From sequence record PQ351811: a stretch of 64,000 nucleotides of DNA. One strand, given 5' to 3'. The translations under genes and the position numbers were made by a program. The DNA is from Shigella phage SSG23. Position 1 is the first letter of the stretch, and each line of letters starts with the position of its first letter. The notes under the pieces were generated by a model that did not search any database, was not told the DNA's origin, and saw only the letters and a list, made by a program, of their open reading frames with translations. Below, piece by piece: positions 30,883 to 57,995 of this stretch.

Positions 30883-32247
30883 ATGGATAAAATTAGTCAA
30901 ATTATAAACACAATTACTTACCGTAGCCTTGAAAGCATTGTACACAATGAAGCTAAGGAATATGCGATCTATTCTGCCGAGGAACGCGGGATTCCTCAAT
31001 TAGTAGATGGGCTTAAACCAGTGCAACGCTTTGTTATGGAATGTGCTTTGCAAAAGAGTAAAGGCGACCGTAAGAAATTCCGTAAGATGGCAGATATTGG
31101 ATCTGGTGTTGCTGAGTTGGGGTATCACCACGGGGAAACTAATGCCGTAGAAGCTGGATCACTCATGGCGAATACATGGAGCAATAATACTCCACTGCTT
31201 GACGGTCAAGGTAACTTTGGATCGCGTTTAGTCCAGAAAGCGGGGGCAGCACGTTATATCTTTGCTCGTGTGCATGAAAACTTCTTTAAAATCTATAAAG
31301 ATATGAATTGCGCACCTAAGCACGAAGATCTGGAACACATCCCGCCAGCATTCTACTTGCCAGTCGTGCCAATGGTATTAGCTAATGGTATTAGTGGTAT
31401 TGCTACAGGGTACAAAACTGACATTTTACCGCATTCACTGGAAAGCCTCATTGAATGCACAGAGCTAGCACTTGCCGGAAAACTGGATAAAGAACCTACT
31501 GTTCAATTCCCGAAATTCACGGGTAAAGTTATCCCGCGAGATGATCGCGATGGTGTGATTCTTGAGGGTACATATGAACTAAACGGCAAGACTAAGCTGA
31601 CAATAACGGAAGTTCCTTATAAGTTCGACCGTGAAGAATATGTAGCGGTACTGGATGCGCTGGAAGAAAAAGATCTGATTGTATCGTATAATGACCGTTG
31701 CTCTAAGGACGGATTCAGATTTGAAGTAACCCTGAAACGCGATTATTTCAAAAGTGAAGATGAATCCGCTCGACATGAGCAGATCATGAAGGATTTTAAG
31801 TTAACGCAGCTAGTAGCACAGAATATCGTAGTAGTTAACGAACGTGGTTTAGTTGAAGTATTCGAGAAAGCGAGCGATCTGATCCGTCGATTCGTCGAAA
31901 TCAGATTAGGCTATGTAGATAAACGCATTGAATTGATGCAAGCCGAAACACTGGAAGCATACAATTATGCAATGGCTAAAGCAGAATTTATCGACCGCGT
32001 AATTAAGGGCGAAATCGAGCTACAGGGCAAGAAAAAGGCCGAGGTGATGCAATCCATCAATGGACATGAAAAACTGCGTCCATATGCCGATAAGCTCGTT
32101 TCTATGCCATTGTATAGCGTTACTCAAGAAGAGTATGATCGACTGGTCAAAGATGCCGATAAACATCATAGTGAATATGAGTATTGGACAAAGACGACCG
32201 CAATGAAGGAATATAAGAAAGATCTTAAAGAACTTAAGAAGGGTTGA
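30883..32247 (+). CDS. 52: DNA topoisomerase II medium subunit gp52 (GyrA-like)
   Basis: DGLKPVQRFV, YHHGE, LLDGQGNFGS and RYIFARV match T4 gp52 and GyrA N-terminal motifs. Confidence 0.9.
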   Translation: MDKISQIINTITYRSLESIVHNEAKEYAIYSAEERGIPQLVDGLKPVQRFVMECALQKSKGDRKKFRKMADIGSGVAELGYHHGETNAVEAGSLMANTWSNNTPLLDGQGNFGSRLVQKAGAARYIFARVHENFFKIYKDMNCAPKHEDLEHIPPAFYLPVVPMVLANGISGIATGYKTDILPHSLESLIECTELALAGKLDKEPTVQFPKFTGKVIPRDDRDGVILEGTYELNGKTKLTITEVPYKFDREEYVAVLDALEEKDLIVSYNDRCSKDGFRFEVTLKRDYFKSEDESARHEQIMKDFKLTQLVAQNIVVVNERGLVEVFEKASDLIRRFVEIRLGYVDKRIELMQAETLEAYNYAMAKAEFIDRVIKGEIELQGKKKAEVMQSINGHEKLRPYADKLVSMPLYSVTQEEYDRLVKDADKHHSEYEYWTKTTAMKEYKKDLKELKKG

Positions 32248-32249
32248 TT

Positions 32250-32453
32250 ATGAAAGATTATCCCGTAGGTGGTTATGTGGCTTTCGTGTTCAACAATGAA
32301 AAGATTGCACCAATGGTCGTTGAGACTATGGAAGAAGCCAACCGGATCACTATTGAATCTCTGAACAAGTTAGCAGAGATAACAAACACACCAAAACACA
32401 GAGCAACGATAGATTATTTGATGAAAGAATTTTTGGAGGGAAAGTATGACTGA
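32250..32453 (+). CDS. hypothetical protein
   Basis: ORF immediately after gene 52. Confidence 0.4.
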   Translation: MKDYPVGGYVAFVFNNEKIAPMVVETMEEANRITIESLNKLAEITNTPKHRATIDYLMKEFLEGKYD

Positions 32454-32841
32454 ACGACGCATCACTGCAACTGGTTTGGGTAATCATCATGCATGGATGG
32501 TTAATCCAGACAAAAATCCTTATAAACTGTACGATACAACGATTAAACCGTGGGATAATGGCGTGTGGAAAACATCACCGACAACAGCACCTATTATGAC
32601 CGATCCGAAACCGATTAGCCCGATGGCGGAACCAGTACAGATTAAGCCGTTACCATACCAGATAACGACGAATAGCATCGCCAACAAGCAAGAAAATGAT
32701 ATTGATATGATCTACGAGATGATTAAACTTTGGCGTGATGTTTATCTGGGTGTTCTTTGCAACACAGATAAAAGTGCACATGCGGCAGCGGTACTTGCAT
32801 CTCATGCGGTAGACGAAGCCAAAAAGAAATTTAGCAAGTAA
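32446..32841 (+). CDS. hypothetical protein
   Basis: 131-aa ORF followed by strong terminator at 32852. Confidence 0.45.
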   Translation: MTERRITATGLGNHHAWMVNPDKNPYKLYDTTIKPWDNGVWKTSPTTAPIMTDPKPISPMAEPVQIKPLPYQITTNSIANKQENDIDMIYEMIKLWRDVYLGVLCNTDKSAHAAAVLASHAVDEAKKKFSK

Positions 32842-32851
32842 CTGATTATTA

Positions 32852-32880
32852 AGCCGATCCTTGTGGTCGGCTTTTTTTTA
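32852..32880 (+). terminator. rho-independent terminator
   Basis: AGCCGA-tccttgtgg-TCGGCT followed by T8. Confidence 0.7.
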
Positions 32881-32892
32881 TTTTAAAAGTTG

Positions 32893-32921
32893 TTGACTTC
32901 CATAATCCAACATTGCATAAT
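32893..32921 (+). promoter_or_regulatory. candidate early promoter
   Basis: TTGACT, 17 nt, CATAAT; follows terminator at 32852. Confidence 0.45.
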
Positions 32922-32952
32922 ACACCCATACCAAACAAAAGGAGATTCAAAA

Positions 32953-33159
32953 ATGAAAGTACGTTGCATTGAAACCGATCACATCAATTATAGCTTTAGT
33001 GTCGGGTGTGATTATGATGTTGATATATTCACGGACAATAGCGGAAACACATTTGATGTAGTTCACGGTGACTATATTTGGTTTTACTTTGACAAACAAC
33101 AACTTACTGCAACCAAACGAAATGGTGATCCGGTAGCAAAATTTGAAATAATCGAATAA
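32953..33159 (+). CDS. hypothetical small protein (paralog of 61313..61531)
   Basis: 68 aa, MK..C start and C-terminal DPVAKFEIIE; flanked by promoter-hairpin cassettes. Confidence 0.45.
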   Translation: MKVRCIETDHINYSFSVGCDYDVDIFTDNSGNTFDVVHGDYIWFYFDKQQLTATKRNGDPVAKFEIIE

Positions 33160-33165
33160 AGTCTA

Positions 33166-33200
33166 TTGACACCAGAACAAGGGAGTAGTAACATACTCCC
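33166..33200 (+). promoter_or_regulatory. PeSL-like promoter-hairpin cassette
   Basis: TTGACA, 17 nt, TAACAT; GGGAGTAGTAACATACTCCC hairpin; conserved leader CCATACCAAACAAAAGGAGAATCA. Confidence 0.6.
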
Positions 33201-33225
33201 ATACCAAACAAAAGGAGAATCAAAG

Positions 33226-33498
33226 ATGAGCAACAAAAACAGCAAAGTGTTAGCAATTGCAGATAAAGTAGGCTACTGGAAATGTTGGGATGATATGGAG
33301 AAATTAGGCGGTCGCTATCTCGATAACTTAGAGTTGCATTATTGCCAAGCGCGTAATGCAGAAGTTGCGGGAGTAGCAATCGAAGATATTCCGTCTAAAG
33401 TCTTCGGATTCTCTAAAGATGATACCTTAGAGTATGTTTTTAAGGCTGTAATGGATCAAGCATGGGAAGACGCAGAGACACGCGCTCTTGATTGGTGA
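33226..33498 (+). CDS. hypothetical protein
   Basis: ORF with AAAGGAGAATCA leader shared by neighbouring cassettes. Confidence 0.45.
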   Translation: MSNKNSKVLAIADKVGYWKCWDDMEKLGGRYLDNLELHYCQARNAEVAGVAIEDIPSKVFGFSKDDTLEYVFKAVMDQAWEDAETRALDW

Positions 33499-33502
33499 TA
33501 AT

Positions 33503-33673
33503 ATGAACTGGTATAAAATTTGGAAAAATCAGGTGGAGGCTTATCTAGGGTATAAGCCCACCGACGAAGAATTACTCGATGCAATGTACGAAGACGGACT
33601 AAATCCGAAAGTAGCCGCGCAAGAATACGCGGAATGGATGAAGGTCGAAGATAACCTAAAGGGGAAACTATGA
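33503..33673 (+). CDS. hypothetical small protein
   Basis: 56-aa ORF. Confidence 0.35.
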   Translation: MNWYKIWKNQVEAYLGYKPTDEELLDAMYEDGLNPKVAAQEYAEWMKVEDNLKGKL

Positions 33674-33894
33674 AGAAAATGATTGCAATTGCTTTGCTGG
33701 CTAGTGCATGTACTGTAAATGCTAATACCGCAGCGATGGTCGCGGCTGTAACTGCTGCAAATGCTTCCGTTATGGCTTCACAAGAGGCAGCACGCCAGCA
33801 AGCACAACAAGAAGCCCAGCGAAAAGCACATGAGGCGACGAAAAATTTTCACGAAAATAATAAAAAAGAAGTTGACGCCAAAGGTCGTCGGTAG
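33670..33894 (+). CDS. small secreted protein (signal peptide)
   Basis: N-terminus MKKMIAIALLASACTVNA is a typical Sec signal peptide; Ala/Gln-rich mature part. Confidence 0.45.
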   Translation: MKKMIAIALLASACTVNANTAAMVAAVTAANASVMASQEAARQQAQQEAQRKAHEATKNFHENNKKEVDAKGRR

Positions 33895-33907
33895 TATTAT
33901 ACTCCCA
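33872..33907 (+). promoter_or_regulatory. PeSL-like cassette (degenerate hairpin) overlapping the end of a coding region
   Basis: TTGACG, 17 nt, TATTAT; GGTAGTA...TACTCCC; inside the 3-prime end of ORF 33670..33894. Confidence 0.5.
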
Positions 33908-33934
33908 TACCGAAACGAACTGGAGGAAATAAAA

Positions 33935-34177
33935 ATGGTTAAAGTTAATGTTATCGAAGTTGCACTGTACGACGCTGGGATCTTCCTGAATGAAAAAGAA
34001 GCTGCCGTCCTCGACGAACTGAAAACTGTTTTTGTTCCTGTAGTAGAAGACGTAGAAGCAATCAAAATCGCTTCTCGTAAACTGTCCCATGAAGCATTTG
34101 ACATGATTGATCCGGTTTTCAAAGTTATGCACGAATGCGCGGTTATGATGACCGAAGAAGAAGCGAAAAATTTCTAA
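33935..34177 (+). CDS. hypothetical protein
   Basis: ORF with GGAGG RBS. Confidence 0.45.
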   Translation: MVKVNVIEVALYDAGIFLNEKEAAVLDELKTVFVPVVEDVEAIKIASRKLSHEAFDMIDPVFKVMHECAVMMTEEEAKNF

Positions 34178-34183
34178 AATTAG

Positions 34184-34218
34184 TTGACGTAAAGAAACGG
34201 GAGTAGTAAGATACTCCC
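34184..34218 (+). promoter_or_regulatory. PeSL-like promoter-hairpin cassette
   Basis: TTGACG, 17 nt, TAAGAT; GGGAGTAGTAAGATACTCCC hairpin. Confidence 0.6.
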
Positions 34219-34241
34219 ATACCAAACGAAAGGAGAATCAC

Positions 34242-34454
34242 ATGAAATCTATCGAGCAAGTAGTAACCGAGTTTATGAGCTACGAAGGAAACCGCATCTT
34301 TGGACGTTCTCAAGTTCGCGAGATCGTAGAAGAAGTTGCGAGAGAGTTTGCGGAATCTGGTCACATTATCACGAAAGACCGTAAAGAAGAAGCAGTAAAC
34401 CAGATCATGGCTATACAGAAAATGCGTATTAATTTACGCGTGGGTAAACATTAA
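34242..34454 (+). CDS. hypothetical protein
   Basis: ORF with conserved AAAGGAGAATCA leader. Confidence 0.45.
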   Translation: MKSIEQVVTEFMSYEGNRIFGRSQVREIVEEVAREFAESGHIITKDRKEEAVNQIMAIQKMRINLRVGKH

Positions 34455-34464
34455 AAATAGTTGT

Positions 34465-34493
34465 TGACAGGGGATCGGTGATCCCCTATAATG
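34465..34493 (+). promoter_or_regulatory. PeSL-like promoter-hairpin cassette
   Basis: TTGACA, 17-nt spacer made of GGGGATC-GGT-GATCCCC hairpin, TATAAT. Confidence 0.65.
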
Positions 34494-34523
34494 AACTCAT
34501 CAAGACAACGAAGGAGAATCAAA

Positions 34524-34679
34524 ATGAAACATACTCACAAATTAATGGTTAAATTTGAAGGTGCTAAGGGATATGAACGTTACGGTGTATTCTTCTCTGA
34601 GGATGATGCATGGGATGCTGGTTTGGCAACGTTCGCCGAACACAACAACATTGAAGACTTTACTGTAGAAGAAATTTAA
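34524..34679 (+). CDS. hypothetical small protein
   Basis: ORF with conserved GAAGGAGAATCA leader. Confidence 0.4.
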   Translation: MKHTHKLMVKFEGAKGYERYGVFFSEDDAWDAGLATFAEHNNIEDFTVEEI

Positions 34680-34687
34680 AAAAGTAG

Positions 34688-34722
34688 TTGACACCGGATT
34701 ATGGGAGTAGTAAGATACTCCC
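34688..34722 (+). promoter_or_regulatory. PeSL-like promoter-hairpin cassette
   Basis: TTGACA, 17 nt, TAAGAT; GGGAGTAGTAAGATACTCCC hairpin identical to the copy at 34199. Confidence 0.6.
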
Positions 34723-34749
34723 ATCAAGAAAAACATTGAGGAATATATT

Positions 34750-35508
34750 ATGAAAAACATTATCGCTGCTATCGTTCTTTCTGCTACTGCTTTCGGTGCT
34801 AATGCTGCGTCCTTTGATTGCACTAAGGCTACTACCAAATCAGAGAAGTTTATTTGTGCTAATGAGTCAATCTCCGCACTGGATTCTAAACTTCATGAAG
34901 TATATGTTAAGGCCGTTAAGATTGATCCGTCTCTGAAACAAGAGCAACGTAACTGGAATAAAACTGTTCGTGATACTATGATCAATATCGGGCAGATTCA
35001 GCCACTGGAGGCTGTATATAACGCTCAAATCCAAAACTTGATGAATGTATTACCTAAAGAAGAAACAGCGTCAGAAAGCGATTCAGAGACTTCTGCGAAG
35101 GTTGAAAAAGAACAACCGAAACAGGAAGCAAAAGTGGTAGAAGAACCGAAGGTTGAAACTTTTACTTATCAATGCAACATTCGCTATGAGTGGAGTATTA
35201 AAGATGGAATTTCCACCAAAATTAAAGAAGCGCCACTGTATGCCAAATATGGAAATCAACCAGGAGATCTTCAAGTAACAATTAAAAATGGGGAAATGGT
35301 CGATTTTGTATACATTGATGAATACAACGTACACAAAGCAAACGTACAAGAAACCGTTATGACTAAAGGCGGGTTTTATAAAAATGTTGGCAAGAAAGAT
35401 CTATATGAATACTCCGTTTTCGAACCAAACGACGGAACTATTCGATTTGAAAAACGTCATCCTACATTCGGTGGCGCAATTGATGTAGATCAATACGTTT
35501 GCAAGTAA
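34750..35508 (+). CDS. secreted protein with DUF1311/LprI-like N-terminal domain
   Basis: Signal peptide MKNIIAAIVLSATAFGANA followed by SFDCTKATTKSEKFICANESISALDSKLHEVY, resembling the lysozyme-inhibitor LprI N-terminal signature. Confidence 0.55.
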   Translation: MKNIIAAIVLSATAFGANAASFDCTKATTKSEKFICANESISALDSKLHEVYVKAVKIDPSLKQEQRNWNKTVRDTMINIGQIQPLEAVYNAQIQNLMNVLPKEETASESDSETSAKVEKEQPKQEAKVVEEPKVETFTYQCNIRYEWSIKDGISTKIKEAPLYAKYGNQPGDLQVTIKNGEMVDFVYIDEYNVHKANVQETVMTKGGFYKNVGKKDLYEYSVFEPNDGTIRFEKRHPTFGGAIDVDQYVCK

Positions 35509-35519
35509 GAGGTTAAATT

Positions 35520-35798
35520 ATGCAATTCAATAACATGAAGATCACAAAAGATTGGTGGGATGCTATGAGAGCTAACGACCGGATCGGAATTGGAAAGGCA
35601 GAAAAGACAGTTGTTATTGTCGAGTATAAAGCGACGCAAGATCTTTTAATTAAGGAACTTATTCGAGCGGGGAGCTATCAAACACCGGAGGGTCTTATTG
35701 ACATGATGGTTGATAACATGTATAGTGACGAACCGCCAAACATTAAACAACATTACAAGCAGTATTACCGAAAGTGGCAGAAGTATAACCGAAAATAG
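35520..35798 (+). CDS. hypothetical protein
   Basis: 92-aa ORF. Confidence 0.45.
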   Translation: MQFNNMKITKDWWDAMRANDRIGIGKAEKTVVIVEYKATQDLLIKELIRAGSYQTPEGLIDMMVDNMYSDEPPNIKQHYKQYYRKWQKYNRK

Positions 35799-35821
35799 TT
35801 TGTTGACGTGAGGATTATATT

Positions 35822-36013
35822 ATGGTAATTTTTAATCGCGATGGTATCATAGTTCGGCAACACCCATTCCTTGAATACTATCAGGTTGAACAATGGGGAT
35901 ACGGGGATTGCTCGCGCTCATACGGTCAAAGCTGGAGATACCGTACAGTTTTTGAATCAACTAATATTGACAAAGTACGACAGAAAGTTTTAGAACTTCT
36001 TAACGATAAGTGA
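35822..36013 (+). CDS. hypothetical protein
   Basis: 63-aa ORF. Confidence 0.4.
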   Translation: MVIFNRDGIIVRQHPFLEYYQVEQWGYGDCSRSYGQSWRYRTVFESTNIDKVRQKVLELLNDK

Positions 36014-36023
36014 GGATTACATC

Positions 36024-36392
36024 ATGGAAATTCAAAACAATTACGAAAAATGTGTTATTATCAATGATCTGCAACGTCAATTGCACCACTACGAAACCGA
36101 TTATAAGACAGCAACCAAAACCGGAAAACTGAAAGTGTGGGAAGTTTGGTATAACCGAAACTATCTAGGCAGTATCCACAAACTTGATCGCAGTGATGTT
36201 TATACAATGCATGTAGGCGCTTGCGGTGAATCGGATGTAGCATTTAATTTCATGGAAGCACTTGCATTCTATGTAGAATATCTGGTAGACTATATCGAGT
36301 TGGAAGAGGAAGTGGTAGAATTGCTTCCTCCACCGGAAGAAGCGCCGGAAGCAACTATCCTTAAAGCATTAAAGAAAATCTTTGTTAAGTGA
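36024..36392 (+). CDS. hypothetical protein
   Basis: 122-aa ORF. Confidence 0.45.
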   Translation: MEIQNNYEKCVIINDLQRQLHHYETDYKTATKTGKLKVWEVWYNRNYLGSIHKLDRSDVYTMHVGACGESDVAFNFMEALAFYVEYLVDYIELEEEVVELLPPPEEAPEATILKALKKIFVK

Positions 36393-36400
36393 GGTGAACT

Positions 36401-36733
36401 ATGAAAAATGTACTGATTGTATGGGAACTGATTCCAGAAACTACCGAATTGTACATGGTACAGGTTGACGATAAAGAATTTGAAATTCTGAAACGCGTCA
36501 ACTGCAAATATATTAACATTGATGACATGACCCCAGAAATGGACTATGTAAACTATGCTCTCATGCAGCCTAGCTGGATTATGGATGAAACTAAAGCAGA
36601 TGCCGAATCGCTGGGTGTACCGGAAGAAGTATTAGCGAAATGGCATCAATTCAAAGTTGAGATAAAAGAGGGTGAACCGTTTATCCCTAGCGGTATGATC
36701 GACGCGGTGATCGTAACAGGTTTTCATCTGTAA
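36401..36733 (+). CDS. hypothetical protein
   Basis: 110-aa ORF. Confidence 0.45.
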   Translation: MKNVLIVWELIPETTELYMVQVDDKEFEILKRVNCKYINIDDMTPEMDYVNYALMQPSWIMDETKADAESLGVPEEVLAKWHQFKVEIKEGEPFIPSGMIDAVIVTGFHL

Positions 36734-36745
36734 GGGTATTCTATA

Positions 36746-37078
36746 ATGTTTAATTATGACAAATATGAATCATGGAAAGCATCCGAACTGAAAGAGGCAG
36801 CGCGGTTAATCACACCGCGTCTTTATCCGGTACTGTTTAGCGCCGATAAAGTAACAAGGGAAGTAAACGAGGCGCTATCGGTTTTAGGTTATCTAATCGA
36901 TAAAGTAGAGAAAACATCGGTATTCACAAATAGTGTAGAATATACCCGTTATCGAGTGTTTTTAGATTCCCTGCTCGTTGTCATTAAGGCGCTAAATGAT
37001 CATAACTACACCATGAACATGACGAAAATAATCGACGAAGCAAGAATTATGACAGAGAATATTTTCGGAAGATTTTGA
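36746..37078 (+). CDS. hypothetical protein (tandem paralog A)
   Basis: 110 aa; C-terminus IIDEARIMTENIFGRF parallels the next gene. Confidence 0.45.
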   Translation: MFNYDKYESWKASELKEAARLITPRLYPVLFSADKVTREVNEALSVLGYLIDKVEKTSVFTNSVEYTRYRVFLDSLLVVIKALNDHNYTMNMTKIIDEARIMTENIFGRF

Positions 37079-37080
37079 TT

Positions 37081-37191
37081 ATGAAAGATGATGAATCATT
37101 GAAAATTGCACTGGTTATTCTATTACAAGGTATAGAATTAGCAAACCACGAAAAAATGTTGATACAACAACGTGAAATTATGAGAGGTTGA
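37081..37191 (+). CDS. hypothetical micro-ORF
   Basis: 36-aa ORF between the two paralogs. Confidence 0.25.
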   Translation: MKDDESLKIALVILLQGIELANHEKMLIQQREIMRG

Positions 37192-37193
37192 TT

Positions 37194-37508
37194 ATGAGTG
37201 ATATTAAAACCGATGAAGAAATGCAGGATATTGCAAAGGAATTAACCACCATCATGATCCGTCGCGGATCGTATAATGCAAAAACCATTATCGATGAAGT
37301 CAATACAGCGATTAAGGCAATCGAGAAAGTAAAGTCAGACGTTGCATTTGAAAGATACACATGGGAAGATATTCGCAATCGAAGCCGCTATAATTTCTTT
37401 GTTGATTGTATTATGTCAATGGTTGAACATTACGGGCATAGCATGAATGACATTATCATCGATGCACGTAAGCTGGCAGAGAATGTTTACGGGAAGTTTC
37501 CAGAATGA
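37194..37508 (+). CDS. hypothetical protein (tandem paralog B)
   Basis: 104 aa; C-terminus IIIDARKLAENVYGKF parallels 36746..37078. Confidence 0.45.
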   Translation: MSDIKTDEEMQDIAKELTTIMIRRGSYNAKTIIDEVNTAIKAIEKVKSDVAFERYTWEDIRNRSRYNFFVDCIMSMVEHYGHSMNDIIIDARKLAENVYGKFPE

Positions 37509-37753
37509 AATTAGAGCAAGCGATTGTTTATTTTGAGATGGGCTATGATATTGCTCGTGTAGAATGGGAAGATGGTGATTTTGTTCGATTGATTGATCTT
37601 CCAGAAACAGCTATTGCACTGGTCAAAGTAGAAAACGGCGTACAACGAAATTACGCGTTTTCTGACGAAGACAAACAAGCCGATGACTGGTACGCTACCT
37701 GTTTTCATCATACAGCGTCAAAATTCGATTCAGGCGCGTCTATGCGTCAATAA
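37505..37753 (+). CDS. hypothetical protein
   Basis: 82-aa ORF; last + gene before the convergent late block. Confidence 0.4.
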   Translation: MKLEQAIVYFEMGYDIARVEWEDGDFVRLIDLPETAIALVKVENGVQRNYAFSDEDKQADDWYATCFHHTASKFDSGASMRQ

Positions 37754-37760
37754 AAAAGAA

Positions 37761-37782
37761 GGGGAGGCCGAAAGGCTTCCCC
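37761..37782. terminator. bidirectional terminator between convergent early (+) and holin t (-) genes
   Basis: GGGGAGGCC-GAAA-GGCTTCCCC; T-rich on both flanks (TTT on +, TTCTTTTTT on -). Confidence 0.6.
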
Positions 37783-37788
37783 TTTAAG

Positions 37789-38445
37789 TTATCTAATCCT
37801 TCCGAGGATTCTGGCAGATTGATTACAAAGAGTATCTAAATTCTCGATATCAATATCTGGTTTATTCTTCCATGCAATGGCAATACTACCAGAATAGACA
37901 TTATCGAGATTGAATATAGGACAAGAATACATGAATCCTATATCGATATTCTCTAATTTTTTCTCCCTCGATGGAATATACTGGAAATCTTTATCGGTAA
38001 AATAGGATTTACCTAAAAGATGCCTACGATATTCTTCACTCGTTTTATTGATAGGGAATCCGCCTAAATTCTTTTCATCGATTGTATGCGGTAGCTTTCC
38101 TTCATATGCCACCAAATCAACAAAATAGTTTAGGTTTTTCGGACGAAAACTAAAAACAGCAGAAAAATCGGCATCAGCCGACACATGAACTATCTGTAAC
38201 TGCTCCTGTGCTGCATTATCAAAATTGCGGTCTTTCTCTACCTGGAGAACGTGAGCATAAGTCTCATAACGAGTCTCTTTATACAAAGCAAACAACTCGT
38301 TTTTGCTATAAACGACAAATGCTAATATGGACAACACGACGGCAGCAAAAACACGAAGTACGAGCAACTCCGTGCTTTTAGTTGTGAAAATAGCGCGCAG
38401 GACATTTGAGATAGCAAAGTCTTTCTCTTTTTCAGAAACTTGCAT
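37789..38445 (-). CDS. t: holin T
   Basis: 218 aa; LQIVHVSADADFSAVFSFRPKNLNYFVDLVAYEGKLP, MYSCPIFNLDNVY and C-terminal ARILGR match T4 holin T. Confidence 0.9.
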   Translation of the reverse strand: MQVSEKEKDFAISNVLRAIFTTKSTELLVLRVFAAVVLSILAFVVYSKNELFALYKETRYETYAHVLQVEKDRNFDNAAQEQLQIVHVSADADFSAVFSFRPKNLNYFVDLVAYEGKLPHTIDEKNLGGFPINKTSEEYRRHLLGKSYFTDKDFQYIPSREKKLENIDIGFMYSCPIFNLDNVYSGSIAIAWKNKPDIDIENLDTLCNQSARILGRIR

Positions 38446-38478
38446 ATAATGCCCTAAGATAACTATGACAGTGTACTC

Positions 38479-38718
38479 TTATTTAGGTACTTGACTATCA
38501 CTAGGTTTATCTTGCTCGTTGCTATCTTCCGACTGATCTTTATTAAACTCCTTATAAAGTTCTTCCACAAAACGGTCATCAATTGGCGTATTGGTATAAG
38601 CCGCAAGACGACGAGCGCAATAGAAGAAAATTTTAGTGAGCATCTTTTCACTAATTAACTTTGATAATAGTTTCATTCCGAAACTAGACAAAGCACCAAT
38701 GACGATATTATAGACCAT
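38479..38718 (-). CDS. hypothetical small protein
   Basis: 79-aa ORF between gene 37 and t, with hydrophobic N-terminus; not gp38-like. Confidence 0.35.
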   Translation of the reverse strand: MVYNIVIGALSSFGMKLLSKLISEKMLTKIFFYCARRLAAYTNTPIDDRFVEELYKEFNKDQSEDSNEQDKPSDSQVPK

Positions 38719-38760
38719 AGCCGTTTCTCCTTAGTAGTTTCCCTTCCCTGGGAGTTTTCC

Positions 38761-41703
38761 TTAATTCTTTTTAAGTTCCGCTAGTTCAGCTTTAACGGCT
38801 TTCAATTCTTCGCTCATTTCCTGAAACGCCTTAATTAAAAGAGCGTTGACAGCAGAGTTAGAAATTGTTAATATCTCTTCTGGTTTATCTGGATCGCCGA
38901 CCTTAGAAGTTGTTACGGCTTCCGGCAATTCTTTTTCAAGATCCTGTGCAATAATACCAACTTCATGAGCAATGACAGTACGGTCAGTTAAAGATTTAAC
39001 CTTATCGTAGGTGTATACAGTCAAGCGATTAACTTTATCGGTGGCATTCTCTTTATACTCTTCCTTGTTGATTTTAAGGCGAGCATCAGAACGAATATAC
39101 ACATCGTTAAACGAACCGTTACGACCTACCGACATATCACCGGAGGCGTTAAAGTCAAAGTTGGCGTCATGAACGTTTAGGCGAGCTAAAGCATTGGTAA
39201 TAGTACCACTAGGAACATGTACACCCATTGCTGCGATATGATATTTACCCCAATGCGTCGCTTTCCATACGTTATGTGCCGAGTCAACGGATTGAGGACA
39301 CCCAACCATAAGGCCAGCAGCACGGTCACGCCAGCTAGCCCAACTACCGCCAGCAACTTCACCACGAATCAGGCCATTACCGCCACCAGTTACAGTACCA
39401 GCTTCCAATTGGATCATTTTATCTGCAAATTTCCACGTCTGGGCTTGTTTCTGACCACGGAAGCGAATAACACCAGCATCATCGGAATACATCAAACCTA
39501 GTTCTAAACCGTCTGGATCTCTAAACCAGATATGCTTATTACCAGTGCGACGAAATTCAATATCAGCACCGTTCAAAAGAATATTGCCGCCAGTGTGAAT
39601 TGCTTGAGGCTTAACAGTACCGTTGATGGCAAACTCAATTGCAGAAGTACCCGGACCGCCAGGCCGTTGAGTATACCAATGCCAACCACTTTCATCTACA
39701 CACTCGAAAACCTGTTTACGGGAACCACTATTACCCCATGCACGAATGTTAAAGCCAGATGTGGCTGTACCCTTGCCCCACGTTAATTTCCCTTCTGTGG
39801 TTAAATCCCCTCGGAAGTGAGCAAGCAATCCACCATCAGCATTACGTTCGGTTGTAAAATGTGTTCCTTTCGTGTCTTCAAATTGTAAAACATTATATCG
39901 TCCAGCGTTACTATTCCCCCAATGGTTAATAGTGAAAGAATCCATCGACTGATTCCCACCCGCAGAGAAAGTAAGCAATCCTTTTTCTAAGAATACATTG
40001 TTGCTAAAACGAGCAGCACGGCTATCTCTTTCGAGAACTAATGCGCCTTCGTTACCATCACCACCTAAAGTAACTTTACCATTTGTCAAATCGTAGATGA
40101 ATGGTCGGTTGCCGTTCCATCCACCAAAACGGTCATTTTCTTCTGTGGAAAGAAGATAAATTTTCGTACCGTCATTACGCCAGAATGCACCGTAATTACC
40201 AAAGATCATGCGATATGCATCTGAGTTAGCGGAATAGTATTGTCCGTTGGTATATACAATTTTTGTTTTTCCTGTAGTCAAATTTACTTGTCCACTACCT
40301 TCCAAATCAAATGAGTTAGCACCAACATCATTACGCCACACAAAACCATCACTAGTACCATCCGCATGACCGATATAACCACTACGTTGGTTTTTACCAT
40401 CACGACGATCCCACCACGCCATATAGGCAGCTTGATCAGTCTGGCGATGTAAAGTCATCGCATTACCACTACCGTGCAATTCCATTTTACCAGTAATTAC
40501 ATATCCTTTATAGCTACCAGGTATAGCACTATTAGAATCAACTCTAAGAACTTCCGTAGAATCTGTAACACCAGTAGCAAGACGATATACAGCACCCTGA
40601 ACGGTTTCATGCCAAACCATTTCATTATAGTTACTACGGAATTTACGAATATATTTCCTACCAGTACCTCTATCATTACTCAAGTGAACAATATCATAGC
40701 TATTTTGTGTGTTGTCGTCAAAACTCAACACACCTCGTTTGTTTTCGGTGTTGAAAAGAGTTACAGCGCGACCGCCAATAACATTATCGCCAGCAGGACG
40801 TTCAGCAACAAAATCTGGAACGTCATGCACTGTTAAATTAACATCAACACTTTTACCAAATTCAACAATAACGTTATCAGTATAACGCTGATATTTCACA
40901 TAGATATCATAGTTATCGCCAGAAGTGTTAACAGCCAAAACATCAAATGATTTGTTTGTATTTCGGCGATATGCAATAACGTTAACACCTTTAGGGCGAT
41001 TATTTCCACTACGAATAACAATTTCTACAATATCAACTTGATCGTATGCAGTAACGTTATATCCGTTGCCGCCATGAATACGGAAAAATACGCTACGCCC
41101 ATTTTGTGGAATCATTGCAGTTGCTAATTTAAAATAGCCTTCAACGGTATCAACAGGAACTGTAGCAAGTTTAACGTTCTTAACAAACATTCTATCTACT
41201 TCTTGTTTGCTATAAACGTTCAATTCTCCTGGAGTTGGCTTATCACCTTCGTGATACATGCGGTAACTGAATCTCTTGTTGCCATCCTTATCAAAACCAT
41301 AGGTTTTAACCTGAGAGGAACTAGAACCATATTGAAATTCAAACCCGCGACCGTGTGCTTTACCGTTAGAATGAGGAATGTTCAGAATCAAGTTAGACCA
41401 ACCATCAGCATTATTCGTTCGAAACGCACCAAATTTGTCAAGGTCGCGAGCGGTTGAATCGTCCATATAGTTAGCGGTTTTACCTAAAATATAGTTGTCG
41501 CCGTCAACCTTACCAGCGAATCTAACTTGTCGGTCATAAACCGGAGGACAACTTAAATTGATAATAGCACCGGAATCATTTTTAGTAAGAAGATATTGAT
41601 CCGCAAGGTTGATTGCCAATTCCCCCGGATTCATCGTACCAGCATCAGGTCGACGACCTTTAGTGCTAGTGCGTTTAAATTGGATTCTGCTTAAATCTGC
41701 CAT
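38761..41703 (-). CDS. 37: long tail fibre distal subunit gp37 with C-terminal intramolecular chaperone domain
   Basis: N-terminus MADLSRIQFKRTSTKGRRPDAGTMNPGELAINL matches T4 gp37; C-terminus has SDARLKINKEEY-type autoproteolytic chaperone motif and a coiled coil. Confidence 0.9.
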   Translation of the reverse strand: MADLSRIQFKRTSTKGRRPDAGTMNPGELAINLADQYLLTKNDSGAIINLSCPPVYDRQVRFAGKVDGDNYILGKTANYMDDSTARDLDKFGAFRTNNADGWSNLILNIPHSNGKAHGRGFEFQYGSSSSQVKTYGFDKDGNKRFSYRMYHEGDKPTPGELNVYSKQEVDRMFVKNVKLATVPVDTVEGYFKLATAMIPQNGRSVFFRIHGGNGYNVTAYDQVDIVEIVIRSGNNRPKGVNVIAYRRNTNKSFDVLAVNTSGDNYDIYVKYQRYTDNVIVEFGKSVDVNLTVHDVPDFVAERPAGDNVIGGRAVTLFNTENKRGVLSFDDNTQNSYDIVHLSNDRGTGRKYIRKFRSNYNEMVWHETVQGAVYRLATGVTDSTEVLRVDSNSAIPGSYKGYVITGKMELHGSGNAMTLHRQTDQAAYMAWWDRRDGKNQRSGYIGHADGTSDGFVWRNDVGANSFDLEGSGQVNLTTGKTKIVYTNGQYYSANSDAYRMIFGNYGAFWRNDGTKIYLLSTEENDRFGGWNGNRPFIYDLTNGKVTLGGDGNEGALVLERDSRAARFSNNVFLEKGLLTFSAGGNQSMDSFTINHWGNSNAGRYNVLQFEDTKGTHFTTERNADGGLLAHFRGDLTTEGKLTWGKGTATSGFNIRAWGNSGSRKQVFECVDESGWHWYTQRPGGPGTSAIEFAINGTVKPQAIHTGGNILLNGADIEFRRTGNKHIWFRDPDGLELGLMYSDDAGVIRFRGQKQAQTWKFADKMIQLEAGTVTGGGNGLIRGEVAGGSWASWRDRAAGLMVGCPQSVDSAHNVWKATHWGKYHIAAMGVHVPSGTITNALARLNVHDANFDFNASGDMSVGRNGSFNDVYIRSDARLKINKEEYKENATDKVNRLTVYTYDKVKSLTDRTVIAHEVGIIAQDLEKELPEAVTTSKVGDPDKPEEILTISNSAVNALLIKAFQEMSEELKAVKAELAELKKN

Positions 41704-41746
41704 TTGATAAAATCCTTAAACGGTTATTAGAATAATATTATTTAGA

Positions 41747-41765
41747 AAAGCGGGGAGATAATCCC
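41747..41765 (-). other. intergenic stem-loop between genes 36 and 37
   Basis: GCGGGGA-gataa-TCCCCGC. Confidence 0.4.
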
Positions 41766-41773
41766 CGCTAAAA

Positions 41774-43264
41774 TTAGAAAGTACCAAAATCAATCACCGC
41801 ATTAAGTGGAACCGCGCCAACCTCTGCGGGTGTCGGTTTATGGCCTTCGTGGTAAAGTTCATAGCGATCTGTGTCTTGAGTATTTCCACGCGCTTTAATG
41901 AAAACAGCTTTAGAATCGTGTGTAATACCCAATTTTTCGGTGGCTTTGATATCGCTGATACGGTGAATCATAGCCGTGCCATCGGCACTATTTAACCCAG
42001 CATAGTAGTTATCACCGTTATATGCACCTCTAGCCGTTTTAACGCCATTTGCAGCCGGAACAGTTAACGGTCCTGTCATGGTGTCGCCAGTTACGTTAAC
42101 ATAGCGAATATCGGCTAATTTACGGTGATCTACATAGTTCCATGCAGTCCACGATTCATTAGAACAGGAACGCCAGCACATCGGATGGTCAATAGATTCA
42201 GGATAATACACCTGAACAATTCGACGAGTACCGACCGCATCTTCTGGGCGGTATACCATCAAAACGCCGTTATAATAGCTATCAGACGGTTTATTAGTAC
42301 CTGATCCAGCATTTTCCACACGATAGATACCGCGATTAATAAGAGTGTTCCAATCAACGTTTCCAATGATGGTTGGATTTGCTACCATTGATTTTTTCTC
42401 AAAGTAGCTCAAACGAACCAATTCATTAGGACCAGCAGGATCGTTTGTCGCCAACATTCTAGGCGCTTGCAAGTTACCTTCCATAATATCACCAGCACGT
42501 TTAACCTGTGCATCATTGGTGACATTACCTAGACCAACATCGGCTTTAGTTGGTTTATTGTTGGTGTGATAAAAACGACCTTCTTTGCCATTAACAAAAA
42601 TGGTAGGCTCATCTTTACTTCGGAATACCAACGTATCAAGAACGTTACCATAATAGATTTTAGTGGCATCAAAATTAATTAAATCACGTCCCCTTGCAAT
42701 TAATTTCGAATCAACCGATAATTTAACTGTGACAGTGTTTAAATTATATGTTCCTGAGAGAGTATCACCGCGACGGGAGACTAAATCCAAATCATTATTC
42801 GTCGGTTTATTGACAGGGCTATAGACGCGCTGACCTGTGTCTTTAATGGTTGTCCCTTCGATAGTCCCTTTAGACTTAAATTCGCCCGTTGTGGTGTCAA
42901 TATAAGCCATGATAACACCATCACGGGCATTAACAAAGCCGATTGACTTCCATGAATGCAAACCCCAGCTTACACCGTCAAAATTAGCGGCATCGCTCTG
43001 TCCTTTAAAAATACCGTTCTTTTTGGTTTCCCCAGCCGATGCACTACCTACGCTTAAACCTTCCTCAAAATGAACTTGCTTTTGAAATGTACCACCCTCG
43101 GATGCACTAACAGCATCAAAATCGGTAGCCGAAGGTCTATCAAAAGCGGTATAGATTTTATGACCTTTGTAGAAAAGCTGATCTCCCGCTGGCTGGATCG
43201 TCAAGTTTCCTTGCGTCCAAATGGGAGATCCGCCTACAGTAGATCCATGTTTCAAATCTGCCAT
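41774..43264 (-). CDS. 36: long tail fibre distal connector gp36
   Basis: N-terminus MADLKHGSTVGGSPIWTQGN matches T4 gp36 (MADLKVGSTTGGSVIWHQGN); longer than the T4 protein. Confidence 0.8.
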   Translation of the reverse strand: MADLKHGSTVGGSPIWTQGNLTIQPAGDQLFYKGHKIYTAFDRPSATDFDAVSASEGGTFQKQVHFEEGLSVGSASAGETKKNGIFKGQSDAANFDGVSWGLHSWKSIGFVNARDGVIMAYIDTTTGEFKSKGTIEGTTIKDTGQRVYSPVNKPTNNDLDLVSRRGDTLSGTYNLNTVTVKLSVDSKLIARGRDLINFDATKIYYGNVLDTLVFRSKDEPTIFVNGKEGRFYHTNNKPTKADVGLGNVTNDAQVKRAGDIMEGNLQAPRMLATNDPAGPNELVRLSYFEKKSMVANPTIIGNVDWNTLINRGIYRVENAGSGTNKPSDSYYNGVLMVYRPEDAVGTRRIVQVYYPESIDHPMCWRSCSNESWTAWNYVDHRKLADIRYVNVTGDTMTGPLTVPAANGVKTARGAYNGDNYYAGLNSADGTAMIHRISDIKATEKLGITHDSKAVFIKARGNTQDTDRYELYHEGHKPTPAEVGAVPLNAVIDFGTF

Positions 43265-43297
43265 AAAGTAACCTCAAAAATTAGTTATAGTTCCGAG

Positions 43298-43305
43298 TAT
43301 TTATA
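43298..43305 (-). promoter_or_regulatory. T4-type late promoter (TATAAATA) upstream of gene 36
   Basis: + strand reads TATTTATA, i.e. TATAAATA on the - strand, about 35 nt upstream of the gene 36 start. Confidence 0.5.
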
Positions 43306-43419
43306 GAATGTTAACAAAATATCGCTTCGCGACGTGCCGTAGGCACTGACTATTTTTTAACCGAAACAAACTTTTCTATATTCTAAAGATCTTTCTTCGT
43401 TTTGGCTACGTTTTAACCA

Positions 43420-43455
43420 ACTGTATAAAAATAAAGCCGACCACATGGATCGGCT
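43420..43455 (-). terminator. rho-independent terminator after gene 35
   Basis: On the - strand: AGCCGA-TCCATGTGG-TCGGCT followed by TTTATTTTTATAC; nearly identical to the + strand terminator at 32852. Confidence 0.6.
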
Positions 43456-43466
43456 TGTTAAAAATG

Positions 43467-44606
43467 TTAATCAACATCGAACTCTTTAAAGTTGTTGGAT
43501 GTGATATGTTTATTATCTCTAGGCAGCTTAAGAAGACTCATTACAGGGTTAGTAAAATCACCGTTATCCTGAATATGAGTTGTTCTAACACCATTAACAC
43601 CAAAGGAAGTAGGACCAGTCGTTTTGACAACCCCACTGATCGGCGTTATTAGTATGTTTCTAACTTTAACAATACCTTCATTGGAGTTGGTTGGATATCT
43701 AACGCAACCAGTTACTACACTATCAACTCCTTCCGGTACAGTATAAACAGCTTCAAACTTTTCCCATTGATCTTTTTTGCTGGCATTGTATCGAACACCA
43801 GTTTTGTATTGTCCATCAGTAAAATAGTTGTGATAGAAACGCGCTGTTACGTTAGCTGCGGCTGCGGCACTATCACGGAACAATTCAAAAGATATTGATA
43901 GTTTGTCACCCGCCTTTATGTTAAAATCTTCAAGTGGTGCGCTGATCTCATCATGAGGCCATTGTATTAGCTCGAAATGTTCGGCATCTTCGCTAACATA
44001 CTCAACCGGATAATCTAAAAATCTCTGTGGTGTTCCTGTGATCGCAAGATCATCTATAGTATCATAAACCTTCTCAATTTGTATAGACGAATCTTGTCCT
44101 TCCCCGTGGGTCGCTTGCATACCCTCACAAACAATTTTACCCATTTTCGTAGAATAAATTGCTGCATATGATACACGAGGCATTTGCTGTAACAAAATAT
44201 GGTTAGGGAATGATACAGCCCCCAGCTTAGAGAATACATCATCGCTTACCGGGTCTGCAAACAATTCTCCATGCGTTGCCATCGCAATGATATAGTCACC
44301 TTTCAGCAAAGAAAGATAATCACGCATTGCCAAAACAGCACCCCGACCATAGAATACCTTTTCTTCGTGTAGTTGTCCAGTTTGGGTAAGAACTTTAAAA
44401 TTTAGGCCAGTTTCATAGCCAGTCCCGACGATCTCCACTCCATTAAATCTAATCCTTGCTGGTTTGGTAGAATCCGCATTAGATCCGCGTACTTCCAGCT
44501 TATACATCACAGAGTTGTTTTCTGAAATGCTTGTAAATGTCGCGGAGTCCTCATCGAAATGCGCAAATTTAATTCCAGTGTTGCGTAATTCTATCTCTTG
44601 TGTCAT
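43467..44606 (-). CDS. 35: long tail fibre hinge connector gp35
   Basis: 379 aa versus T4 gp35 372 aa; conserved position between 34 and 36. Confidence 0.7.
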   Translation of the reverse strand: MTQEIELRNTGIKFAHFDEDSATFTSISENNSVMYKLEVRGSNADSTKPARIRFNGVEIVGTGYETGLNFKVLTQTGQLHEEKVFYGRGAVLAMRDYLSLLKGDYIIAMATHGELFADPVSDDVFSKLGAVSFPNHILLQQMPRVSYAAIYSTKMGKIVCEGMQATHGEGQDSSIQIEKVYDTIDDLAITGTPQRFLDYPVEYVSEDAEHFELIQWPHDEISAPLEDFNIKAGDKLSISFELFRDSAAAAANVTARFYHNYFTDGQYKTGVRYNASKKDQWEKFEAVYTVPEGVDSVVTGCVRYPTNSNEGIVKVRNILITPISGVVKTTGPTSFGVNGVRTTHIQDNGDFTNPVMSLLKLPRDNKHITSNNFKEFDVD

Positions 44607-52427: not shown

Positions 52428-52453
52428 AGCCTCCCTTCGGGGAGGCTTTTTTA
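52428..52453 (+). terminator. rho-independent terminator after gene 32
   Basis: AGCCTCCC-ttcg-GGGAGGCT followed by TTTTTTATT. Confidence 0.75.
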
Positions 52454-55751: not shown

Positions 55752-57995
55752 ATGATTAAAAATGTTGTTAAGTCTTCCGGTCTGACTGTTCCGTTTGAAA
55801 AAGAAAAAGTAATGAAAATTCTGGAAGCGGCAGCCGAAGGTCATAACGTTGATCCATATGAATTGTTTGATATGGTTGAACCGCTTCTGACAGAAGGTAT
55901 GTCTACCAACGATATCCAGAAAGTATTGATTAAGGTCGCCGCAGATAACATTACTGTAGAAACACCTGATTATCAATATGTAGCAAGTAACCTTGCAATG
56001 TTCGCGCTTCGTAAATCAGTATATGGTCAATTCCAACCGATTGATTTTTACAGCCATATTGAGCGTAATATTGCAACCGGAAAATATGATCGCGAAATTC
56101 TGCAAAAGTATTCCCGTGAAGAAGTGGAATATCTGGAGAAATTCATCGATCATAAACTTGATTTTAAAATGACCTATGCTGGTGCGATGCAGTTAAAAGA
56201 GAAATATCTTGTTCAGGATCGCAGCACTAAGAAAATCATTGAAACACCGCAATTTGCGTATATGCTGATCGGTATGTGCTTACATCAAGAAGAGACAGAA
56301 AATCGACTTGAACATGTGATTGATTTTTATAATGCTGTTGCGAATAAGCAAATTTCTCTGCCTACTCCGATTATGGCGGGTGTGCGTACCCCGACACGAC
56401 AATTTAGTTCGTGTGTGGTGATTGAAAGTGATGACTCATTGCAGGGCATCAATGAAACAGCAAATGCAATCATCAAGTATATTAGTAAGCGTGCTGGTAT
56501 CGGCATCAATGCTGGTATGATTCGCGCGGAAGGATCTAAGATCGGGCATGGTGAAGTTCGTCATACTGGCGTTATCCCGTTCTGGAAACATTTTCAGACT
56601 GCCGTTAAGTCATGTTCACAAGGCGGTATTCGTGGCGGGGCAGCGACTCTCTATTACCCAATGTGGCATTTAGAGTTTGAAAGTCTTATTGTGTTGAAGA
56701 ACAACAAAGGGGTAGAAGATAACCGCATCCGTCATCTTGATTACGGCGTACAGATTAATAACCTGATGGTAGAGCGATTCCTTAAACGCGATTACATTAC
56801 TCTGTTTAGTCCAGATGTTGCGGGTGGCTTGTTGTGGGATCTGTACTTCCGAGATGAGGAAGGATTCCGCCAGCTTTACGAAAAACTGGAAAAAGATCCG
56901 AGTGTGCGTAAAACTCGTGTTAAAGCCGAAGACCTGTTTTTAGCGGTGGCAATTGAACGTTTTAACACTGGTCGAATCTATCCAGCGTTCACAGACAACA
57001 TGAACAATCACGGGGCGTTTATTCGTAATGTAGCACCGATTAAACAATCTAACCTGTGTTGTGAAATTGCTCTGCCGACAAAACCGATGGGTCGTGATGA
57101 TTCAGAGATCAGCCTATGCACTTTGGCAGCATATGTTTTAGGTAATTTCGATATCGAAAACATGGAAGAAGTAGAACGCATTGCTATGGTTATGGTGCGT
57201 GCGCTTGACAACTTGTTAGATTATCAGGATTATCCTGTAAAACAAGCACTGACAGCCAAAAAACGTCGCTCTCTGGGTGTTGGCGTGACTAACTTTGCAT
57301 CATATCTGGCGGATAATTTCTTCACATATGAAGACGCTAACGAGTTTACGCATAAAACGTTTGAACGCTTGCAATATGCTCTGATTAAGGCTAGTGTGCA
57401 ACTGGCTAAAGAGAAGGGTGCTTGCGAACTGATGCACGAAACACGTTATGGTCGCGGTGAACTTCCTATTGACTGGTACAAAAAGACAGTAGATGAACTG
57501 GTTGATCCGGTGTATGAGATGGATTGGGAAGAACTGCGCGAAGACCTGAAAAAATATGGCATTCGTAACAGTACGCTTTCGGCGCTGATGCCTTGTGAGT
57601 CGTCTTCTCAGGTGTCTAACAGCACAAACGGTATTGAACCGCCTCGCGGGATTGTATCGGTTAAAGGATCAAAGGAAGGACAATTTAATCAGGTTATTCC
57701 GAACGTAGAGAATAATGCTGATGTTATTGACCTGCTTTGGACACTGATCAAGAAAGGTAACAAGCCTTATCTGACACTGGCAGCGATCATGCAGAAGTTT
57801 GTAGATCAGGCGATTAGTTCCAATACATCCTACGATCCAAGCACTTATAAGACTGGTAAAGTCGATATTGCTGATGTATTAGATGATATGTTGTTTGCTC
57901 AATATTACGGCCTCAAGACACTGTATTACGCTAACGTGCGTGATGGTGCTGATGGTACGGAAGACGCTAGCGAATGTTCATCTTGCAAACTGTAA
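55752..57995 (+). CDS. nrdA: ribonucleotide reductase large subunit NrdA (class Ia)
   Basis: N-terminal ATP-cone, catalytic NLCCEI and C-terminal CSSCKL tail; 747 aa. Confidence 0.95.
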   Translation: MIKNVVKSSGLTVPFEKEKVMKILEAAAEGHNVDPYELFDMVEPLLTEGMSTNDIQKVLIKVAADNITVETPDYQYVASNLAMFALRKSVYGQFQPIDFYSHIERNIATGKYDREILQKYSREEVEYLEKFIDHKLDFKMTYAGAMQLKEKYLVQDRSTKKIIETPQFAYMLIGMCLHQEETENRLEHVIDFYNAVANKQISLPTPIMAGVRTPTRQFSSCVVIESDDSLQGINETANAIIKYISKRAGIGINAGMIRAEGSKIGHGEVRHTGVIPFWKHFQTAVKSCSQGGIRGGAATLYYPMWHLEFESLIVLKNNKGVEDNRIRHLDYGVQINNLMVERFLKRDYITLFSPDVAGGLLWDLYFRDEEGFRQLYEKLEKDPSVRKTRVKAEDLFLAVAIERFNTGRIYPAFTDNMNNHGAFIRNVAPIKQSNLCCEIALPTKPMGRDDSEISLCTLAAYVLGNFDIENMEEVERIAMVMVRALDNLLDYQDYPVKQALTAKKRRSLGVGVTNFASYLADNFFTYEDANEFTHKTFERLQYALIKASVQLAKEKGACELMHETRYGRGELPIDWYKKTVDELVDPVYEMDWEELREDLKKYGIRNSTLSALMPCESSSQVSNSTNGIEPPRGIVSVKGSKEGQFNQVIPNVENNADVIDLLWTLIKKGNKPYLTLAAIMQKFVDQAISSNTSYDPSTYKTGKVDIADVLDDMLFAQYYGLKTLYYANVRDGADGTEDASECSSCKL

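Follow-up and report, generated by a model that had tools for sequence, protein, structure and literature searches.

The mRNAs of phage T4 reportedly contain extra-stable tetraloop hairpins of the C(UUCG)G or GNRA kind, which Tuerk et al. are said to have described in 1988. For the phages RB49 and phi1, promoter-early stem-loop (PeSL) cassettes have been described (Arbiol et al. 2010, PMC2839356; Comeau et al. 2014, PMC4122927), and termination was shown for PeSL211/210 only (Arbiol et al., PMC2839356), a PeSL stem-loop different from the one found here. The typical PeSL stem-loop of RB49 has the form Gn-loop-Cn and is located between the -35 and -10 elements.

The DNA that we analysed, referred to as the window, is a stretch of 64,000 nucleotides with the sequence of Shigella phage SFHK24 (PQ351812.1; window position = record position - 67,341). 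SFHK24 is a Krischvirus, i.e. an RB49-like T4-type myovirus, and its complete genome comprises 168,820 bp. The window contains two near-identical hairpins on opposite strands, here called site 1 and site 2. Their orthologues are already public as predicted terminators, in GEC-3S (NC_025425.1, 159199-159217 and 149243-149261) and in G2248 (MK327932.1, 166439-166459 and 155576-155594), and the site-2 hairpin is also an annotated terminator in Makalu and TB34. Neither the near-identity of the pair nor the wider family to which it belongs is remarked upon in these records. We consider it very probable that the two hairpins are Rho-independent terminators of a Krischvirus and kin to each other within a lineage-specific family. 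The pair is a real but ordinary element of a known kind; taken alone it matters little, but it confirms that two predicted RB49-like terminators are sister copies.

Sequence and predicted fold of the two hairpins

The site-1 hairpin, AAGCCGATCCTTGTGGTCGGCTT, occupies positions 32851-32873 of the + strand. The site-2 hairpin, AAGCCGATCCATGTGGTCGGCTT, occupies positions 43434-43456 of the - strand, on which it is trailed by TATTTTTATAC (TATTTTTAT). Both conform to the consensus AAGCCGATCC[T/A]TGTGGTCGGCTT, in which 22 of 23 bases are identical; the sole mismatch concerns the loop, whose second base is T at site 1 (32861) and A at site 2 (43446, - strand). The preliminary description of this DNA, which had pointed out a near-identical pair at two distant sites with a single loop-base difference, was thus right about both positions and about the difference. 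The two copies also have an imperfection in common, a 10-nt 5' arm that faces a 9-nt 3' arm and leaves a wobble or a bulge, as well as an AA/TT extension and the start of the U-run. When the whole 168,820-bp genome was compared with itself by BLAST, 30 of 32 nt were identical between site 1 and site 2 (hairpin plus U-run, E = 3e-7), and no homology of the two sites extended past these 32 nt. A genome-wide search for the hairpin, as proposed in the preliminary description, gave no further copy with up to five mismatches anywhere in the 168,820 bp. The stem pattern occurs twice in the window versus 0.1 times expected from a shuffled window. The similarity of the pair is well above chance for random sequence, and it is much less remarkable given the genome's family of related terminators.

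The predicted RNA folds have energies of -12.7 kcal/mol (site 1) and -12.6 kcal/mol (site 2), with z about -4 versus shuffles, and allow two tops of nearly equal energy: a loop of 5 nt above a G.U pair, or a loop of 4 nt with a bulged U. At both sites the hairpin has a 9-bp stem with five G-C pairs and a loop of 4-5 nt, and it starts 10 nt past a co-oriented stop codon. The U-tract of site 1 consists of U8 followed by AUUUU (T8 A T4 at 32872..32884, + strand, the eight T being 32872-32879). That of site 2 reads UUUAUUUUUAU and is interrupted (UUUAUUUUUAUAC at 43423..43435, - strand); therefore, termination at site 2 may be partial or leaky. A terminator scan picked up both sites. Hairpin, U-run and gene-end position all fit predicted intrinsic terminators, and the initial reading of both elements as terminators is thereby upheld. 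A bidirectional terminator was ruled out, since the opposite strands fold as well but lack U-runs. With (C)UUGU and (C)AUGU, the loops of the pair are different from the UUCG and GNRA tetraloops closed by C-G.

Termination activity is predicted for both hairpins. RNA polymerase would transcribe the 9-bp G+C-rich hairpin and then the U-run, where the transcript would be released, and the hairpin remaining at its 3' end would protect the mRNA. The use of the element in both orientations had been taken as a sign of its mobility or of recognition by a factor. Each hairpin is indeed sense-oriented behind one of two oppositely facing genes, but this is trivial, as it mirrors gene direction alone: the hairpins face opposite ways because the genes before them lie on opposite strands. 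The early and the late genes of this region run towards each other, and the opposite-strand use therefore carries no further meaning.

Distribution and variation of stem and loop

A 41-nt query around site 2, searched against 50,697 phage records, matched only the 58 records of Krischvirus; it did so at 120 places, i.e. about two per genome. The flanks of both sites were found in 58 of 58 Krischvirus genomes, and in all of them both hairpins occupy fixed orthologous positions. A search for more divergent relatives via gp36 yielded three IMG/VR loci and one metagenome contig, all of which are close relatives.

Eleven relatives were read at the sequence level, ten of them for site 1 and all eleven, including a divergent metagenomic one, for site 2. 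At both sites, none of the 18 stem bases varies, and the divergent metagenomic relative has kept the site-2 stem although its flanks have changed. The loops behave differently. At site 1, eight genomes have the loop TTGT, G2248 has GTGT and UPWr_E1 has TCGT; at site 2, it is ATGT in four genomes and TCGT in eight, G2248 being one of the latter. Grouping of the 58 records by BLAST identity assigns the ATGT allele, together with identical flanks, to about 27 of them. The same holds for two sister terminators with the stem AGCCGTCC/GGGCGGCT, of which one has TTGT, TCCT or TCGT as its loop and the other has TTCG, TTGT or TTCT. For 12 orthologous family terminators of SFHK24 and LF73P4, only 1 of 212 stem bases differs, as compared to 7 of 55 loop bases and a genome-wide background of about 5%. 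Judged from these sequences, the pattern bears the signature of selection on the helix and of none on the loop sequence.

The preliminary description had also considered that a conserved loop might be recognised by a factor. According to this explanation, the loop would be a specific binding or cleavage site of a phage or host factor such as an RNase or an RNA chaperone. It could account for the near-identity of the two loops in one genome, and in our sample neither the closing C nor the final GT of the loop varies. But the second and third loop positions differ between genomes with 92-98% identity, loops evolve faster than the background (the 7 of 55 bases mentioned above), and sister terminators with like stems carry GAAA, TTCG, TCCT or TTCT instead. 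One example is the terminator behind nrdD, AGCCGATCC-GAAA-GGGTCGGCT, which has the same stem as the pair and a different loop. In addition, an Rfam scan of positions 32000-44000 (E <= 1) gave no match at either site. Stems that never change next to a loop that does argue against a loop-reading factor, which we regard as highly improbable; this suggestion was not borne out. The loop of these terminators is not a conserved recognition element. Frozen stems combined with loops that evolve faster than the background provide a handy internal control for structure-based annotation.

Pairing appears to be maintained at another terminator of the window as well. The gene 32 terminator, AGCCTCCC-TTCG-GGGAGGCT (52428-52447, + strand), shows a compensatory change from C-G to T-A in GEC-3S and FL15, and JSE carries a T.G intermediate. 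LF73P4 and KMB43 have a different allele of the gp32 C terminus, with several changes around the hairpin.

The same stem, AGCCGATCC…GGTCGGCT, was also observed in an inovirus-like lineage (10 IMG/VR contigs, about 36% G+C), without a T-run. Its neighbours on either side are a gene-V-like ORF of 126 aa and a coat-like ORF of 76 aa, and its loop is variable (GTGT, GTGC, GCGT) while the stem is constant. Site 1 of G2248 contains a 21-mer identical to that of this lineage. A BLAST search with the inovirus-like contig revealed no relative among isolates. We rejected the 21-mer as a relative of the pair: the stem is generic, a T-run is missing, and its recurrence is probably due to chance.

Gene context and recombination at the two sites

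Site 1 follows a 131-aa ORF (32446..32841, + strand; CDS0171 in the annotation of PQ351812.1 and also in our ORF list), a small early gene and the last one of an early unit that includes gp52, the medium subunit of topoisomerase II. Downstream of the hairpin, the promoter scan revealed a near-consensus sigma-70-type early promoter, TTGACT-17-CATAAT (32893..32921, + strand), which is an annotated promoter in GEC-3S and is preceded by T8ATTTTAAAAG. The hairpin and the -35 hexamer are 19 nt apart, and the U-tract of the hairpin doubles as the AT-rich upstream region of this promoter. Between the promoter and the ATG at 32954 lies a repeated 5' leader with a Shine-Dalgarno sequence. Promoter, leader and Shine-Dalgarno sequence match at least 12 other intergenic sites with 71-100% identity; at site 1, the repeated stretch reaches from the U-run through all three of them. 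Directly after this cassette comes a 273-nt segment that consists of a 207-nt ORF and the next PeSL. This segment (ORF at 32954-33160, PeSL at 33160-33225) is present in SFHK24, UPWr_E1 and KMB43 and absent in RB49, GEC-3S, JSE, G2248 and FL15. The junction of the indel falls in the repeated Shine-Dalgarno region, and the 273-nt difference is a textbook PeSL-to-PeSL indel, an event of the kind described previously (PMC2839356, PMC4122927).

The site-1 hairpin is the stem-loop of a PeSL cassette. In contrast to the typical Gn-loop-Cn of RB49 between -35 and -10, it is an AGCC…GGCT hairpin located upstream of the promoter, and it fits the PeSL subclass that has its stem-loop in the upstream AT-rich region. 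Functionally, site 1 would terminate an early unit that extends across gp52 and two small ORFs and would insulate the next early promoter, hairpin and promoter together forming the cassette.

Site 2 is different in this respect. It follows gene 35, which encodes the long tail fibre proximal connector (43467..44606, - strand, 379 aa; identified by annotation and by tblastn to gp35 of T4 and many T4-type phages). About 130 nt past the hairpin lies a T4-type late promoter of gene 36, TATAAATA (43298..43305, - strand), recognised by its sequence and by the same order in T4; the gene 36 start codon is at 43264. The only candidate for an early sigma-70 promoter is a weak 9/12 match, TAGCCA-17-TAGAAT. 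With a late promoter next to it and no early one, site 2 is, as far as the sequence tells, not a PeSL. Here, the hairpin would terminate the late message of gene 35, and gene 36 would be driven by its own late promoter.

The annotation of SFHK24 also lists a 29-aa 'hypothetical protein' in this spacer, CDS0191 (43357-43446, - strand), which runs into the repeat described below. Its start is an ATG made by the loop base A of site 2, and the ORF is therefore impossible in relatives with a TCGT loop. CDS0191 is almost certainly spurious, an artefact of the loop ATG.

In the stretch from the site-2 hairpin to the gene 36 late promoter lies a 110-nt repeat (43311..43420, - strand), which was delimited by within-genome BLAST, alignment and consensus fold. 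It adjoins site 2 but is outside the hairpin, and it is an element separate from the hairpin pair. A second copy (PQ351812.1, 32076-32183) is 90% identical over 110 nt and lies just upstream of a g3-like late gene. A third, partial copy of 33 nt (PQ351812.1, 163224-163256) is located about 75 nt after another family terminator. The repeat is confined to the 58 Krischvirus genomes, at about three places in each. It holds a AAAGATCTTT palindrome and three small hairpins, one of them GTCGCGAAGCGAT, and the differences between copies preserve pairing in these hairpins. In the distant T4-type Aeromonas phage 31, a dispersed repeat is annotated as '31repeatA_6' in the g35-g36 spacer (AY962392.1, 149860-150160), which also contains two mini-hairpins of sequence GCGAAGC; this recalls the Krischvirus repeat with its GCGAAGC hairpin. 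A literature search on the Aeromonas-phage 'repeatA' returned nothing useful.

The gene order of LF73P4 (OZ035795.1) differs from that of SFHK24 by what appear to be two successive large inversions, with junctions at 56743-56851, 141390-141499, about 37200-37750 and about 82750-83350. Two of the breakpoints lie in inverted 110-nt repeats, both full copies of the repeat being hybrids of a reciprocal kind. For the remaining two breakpoints, the sites are near-identical PeSLs (53.46-53.54 kb and 136.72-136.80 kb of the SFHK24 record), each of which adjoins a small ORF specific to LF73P4. In all other records for which both positions were listed (about 30), the hairpin sites are about 10.6 kb apart. 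The rearrangement may reflect real recombination between short regulatory repeats or else an assembly error. We regard it, together with the 110-nt repeat, as being of more interest than the hairpin pair itself.

These observations bear on the earlier proposal that the terminator travels as a module. One part of it stands: the pair belongs to a lineage-specific family, flanks are shared within this family, and site 1 is part of a PeSL with gain or loss of the adjacent ORF. But both hairpins are fixed in 58 of 58 genomes and have nothing in common past 32 nt, and there is therefore no sign of recent movement. The same data weigh against an explanation at the DNA level, in which the hairpins would be recombination or mobility sites, PeSL-like exchange points that move the terminator or its neighbours, also into the late tail-fibre operon. 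This idea draws on the site-1 cassette, which borders the 273-nt ORF indel between two adjacent PeSLs, on a PeSL crossover that was mapped within a stem-loop (Arbiol et al., PMC2839356), and on the LF73P4 breakpoints in short regulatory repeats, one of which abuts site 2. Furthermore, the loop alleles TTGT and TCGT recur at three loci with like stems, which gene conversion could explain, but point mutation in an exposed loop can give recurrent alleles as well. The crossover of the site-1 indel, however, falls in the leader/Shine-Dalgarno repeat and not in the hairpin; site 2 lacks an early promoter, and gene content next to g35 and g36 does not vary. We therefore consider a role of the hairpins as mobility sites improbable.

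A more general idea, which we put forward tentatively and hold to be rather unlikely, is that the Krischvirus terminators are paralogues whose likeness is maintained by gene conversion between short palindromic modules, with loops swapped across loci. The short repeats (PeSLs and the 110-nt repeat) would then actively take part in recombination, to the point of inverting tens of kilobases, which the LF73P4 record suggests.

The terminator family and other T4-type phages

The wider family was delineated by scanning the whole genomes of SFHK24, LF73P4 and the Tequatrovirus DCP2 for hairpins with a T-rich tail. The (A)GCC…GGC(T) type accounts for 15 of the 28 terminator-like hairpins in SFHK24 and for 11 of 22 in the related LF73P4, versus only 2 of 22 in DCP2, a T4-type phage that infects the same host (Fisher p = 0.001). 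The prevailing stem design of DCP2 is AGGGAxCC…GGxTCCCT; UUCG and GAAA loops are common in the terminators of both Krischvirus and DCP2. Each of the 15 family hairpins of SFHK24 follows a co-oriented stop codon at a distance of no more than about 150 nt, in most cases 4-20 nt. They usually have CC/GG closing a UUCG, GAAA or UUGU loop, often with an adjacent T.G wobble, and differ from each other chiefly at two to three central stem positions and in the loop. The methyltransferase terminator has 33 of 37 nt in common with site 1, including the TTGT loop, and other members have 48-94 nt of flank in common with each other. The kinship that the preliminary description had implied for the pair is thus supported: the two hairpins are related to each other and part of a larger Krischvirus family.

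The alternative to kinship is independent convergence, in which strong terminators of an AT-rich genome are pushed to one design: an A-tract comes first, the stem has GCC…GGC at its base and CC/GG at its top, and a U-tract follows. The range of possible designs is narrow, with variation mainly at the few central stem positions and the loop. Moreover, the same 17-base stem with other loops was found in about 25 unrelated viral contigs of IMG/VR; with any 4-nt loop, it is present in 35 IMG/VR contigs, mostly unrelated and some of them with T-runs, and a related stem in at least 120. Since the same stem occurs in unrelated contigs, identical stems can arise independently, and because the similarity of the pair ends after 32 nt, descent is not provable from the flanks. 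But convergence does not readily explain the features that the two copies have in common beyond this design, namely the imperfection of 10-nt versus 9-nt arm, the AA/TT extension and the start of the U-run. It is also at odds with the figures for DCP2, which uses the same RNA polymerase and has the GCC…GGC type in only 2 of 22 cases. Finally, no copy that could indicate a host origin was found in 5,426 complete E. coli genomes. Because a T4-type phage of the same host has a different stem design, this design is a lineage trait and not imposed by the E. coli RNA polymerase, and its lineage specificity favours copying of short regulatory modules over convergence. We infer common descent for the pair, which is likelier than convergence; the latter deserves serious consideration but is on balance unlikely.

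Common descent would then account for the near-identity of the pair within the lineage-specific AGCC…GGCT family. This family may have spread by copying or recombination of short regulatory modules, with selection subsequently fixing the stems while the loop drifts.

A comparison of the gene 35/36 spacer with other T4-type phages shows what is shared and what is specific to the lineage. T4 has the same layout as site 2, with the g35 stop codon followed by a hairpin, a T-run, TATAAATA and g36, but its hairpin, GGGACCC-TTCG-GGTTCCC, carries a UUCG tetraloop and is unrelated to the site-2 stem AGCCGAUC/GGUCGGCU with its non-canonical loop. Aeromonas phage 31 shares this layout, and the hairpin that directly follows its g35, GGGCC-TTCG-GGCCC, again has the extra-stable UUCG tetraloop and a sequence likewise unrelated to site 2. 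Krischvirus differs from both phages by the 110-nt repeat inserted before the late promoter. Since a hairpin after g35 is found in T4 and in Aeromonas phage 31 too, the terminator at this position is conserved in T4-type phages, although its sequence is not. That each T4-type lineage has its own terminator 'house style' points to the copying of modules rather than to selection by the host polymerase alone.
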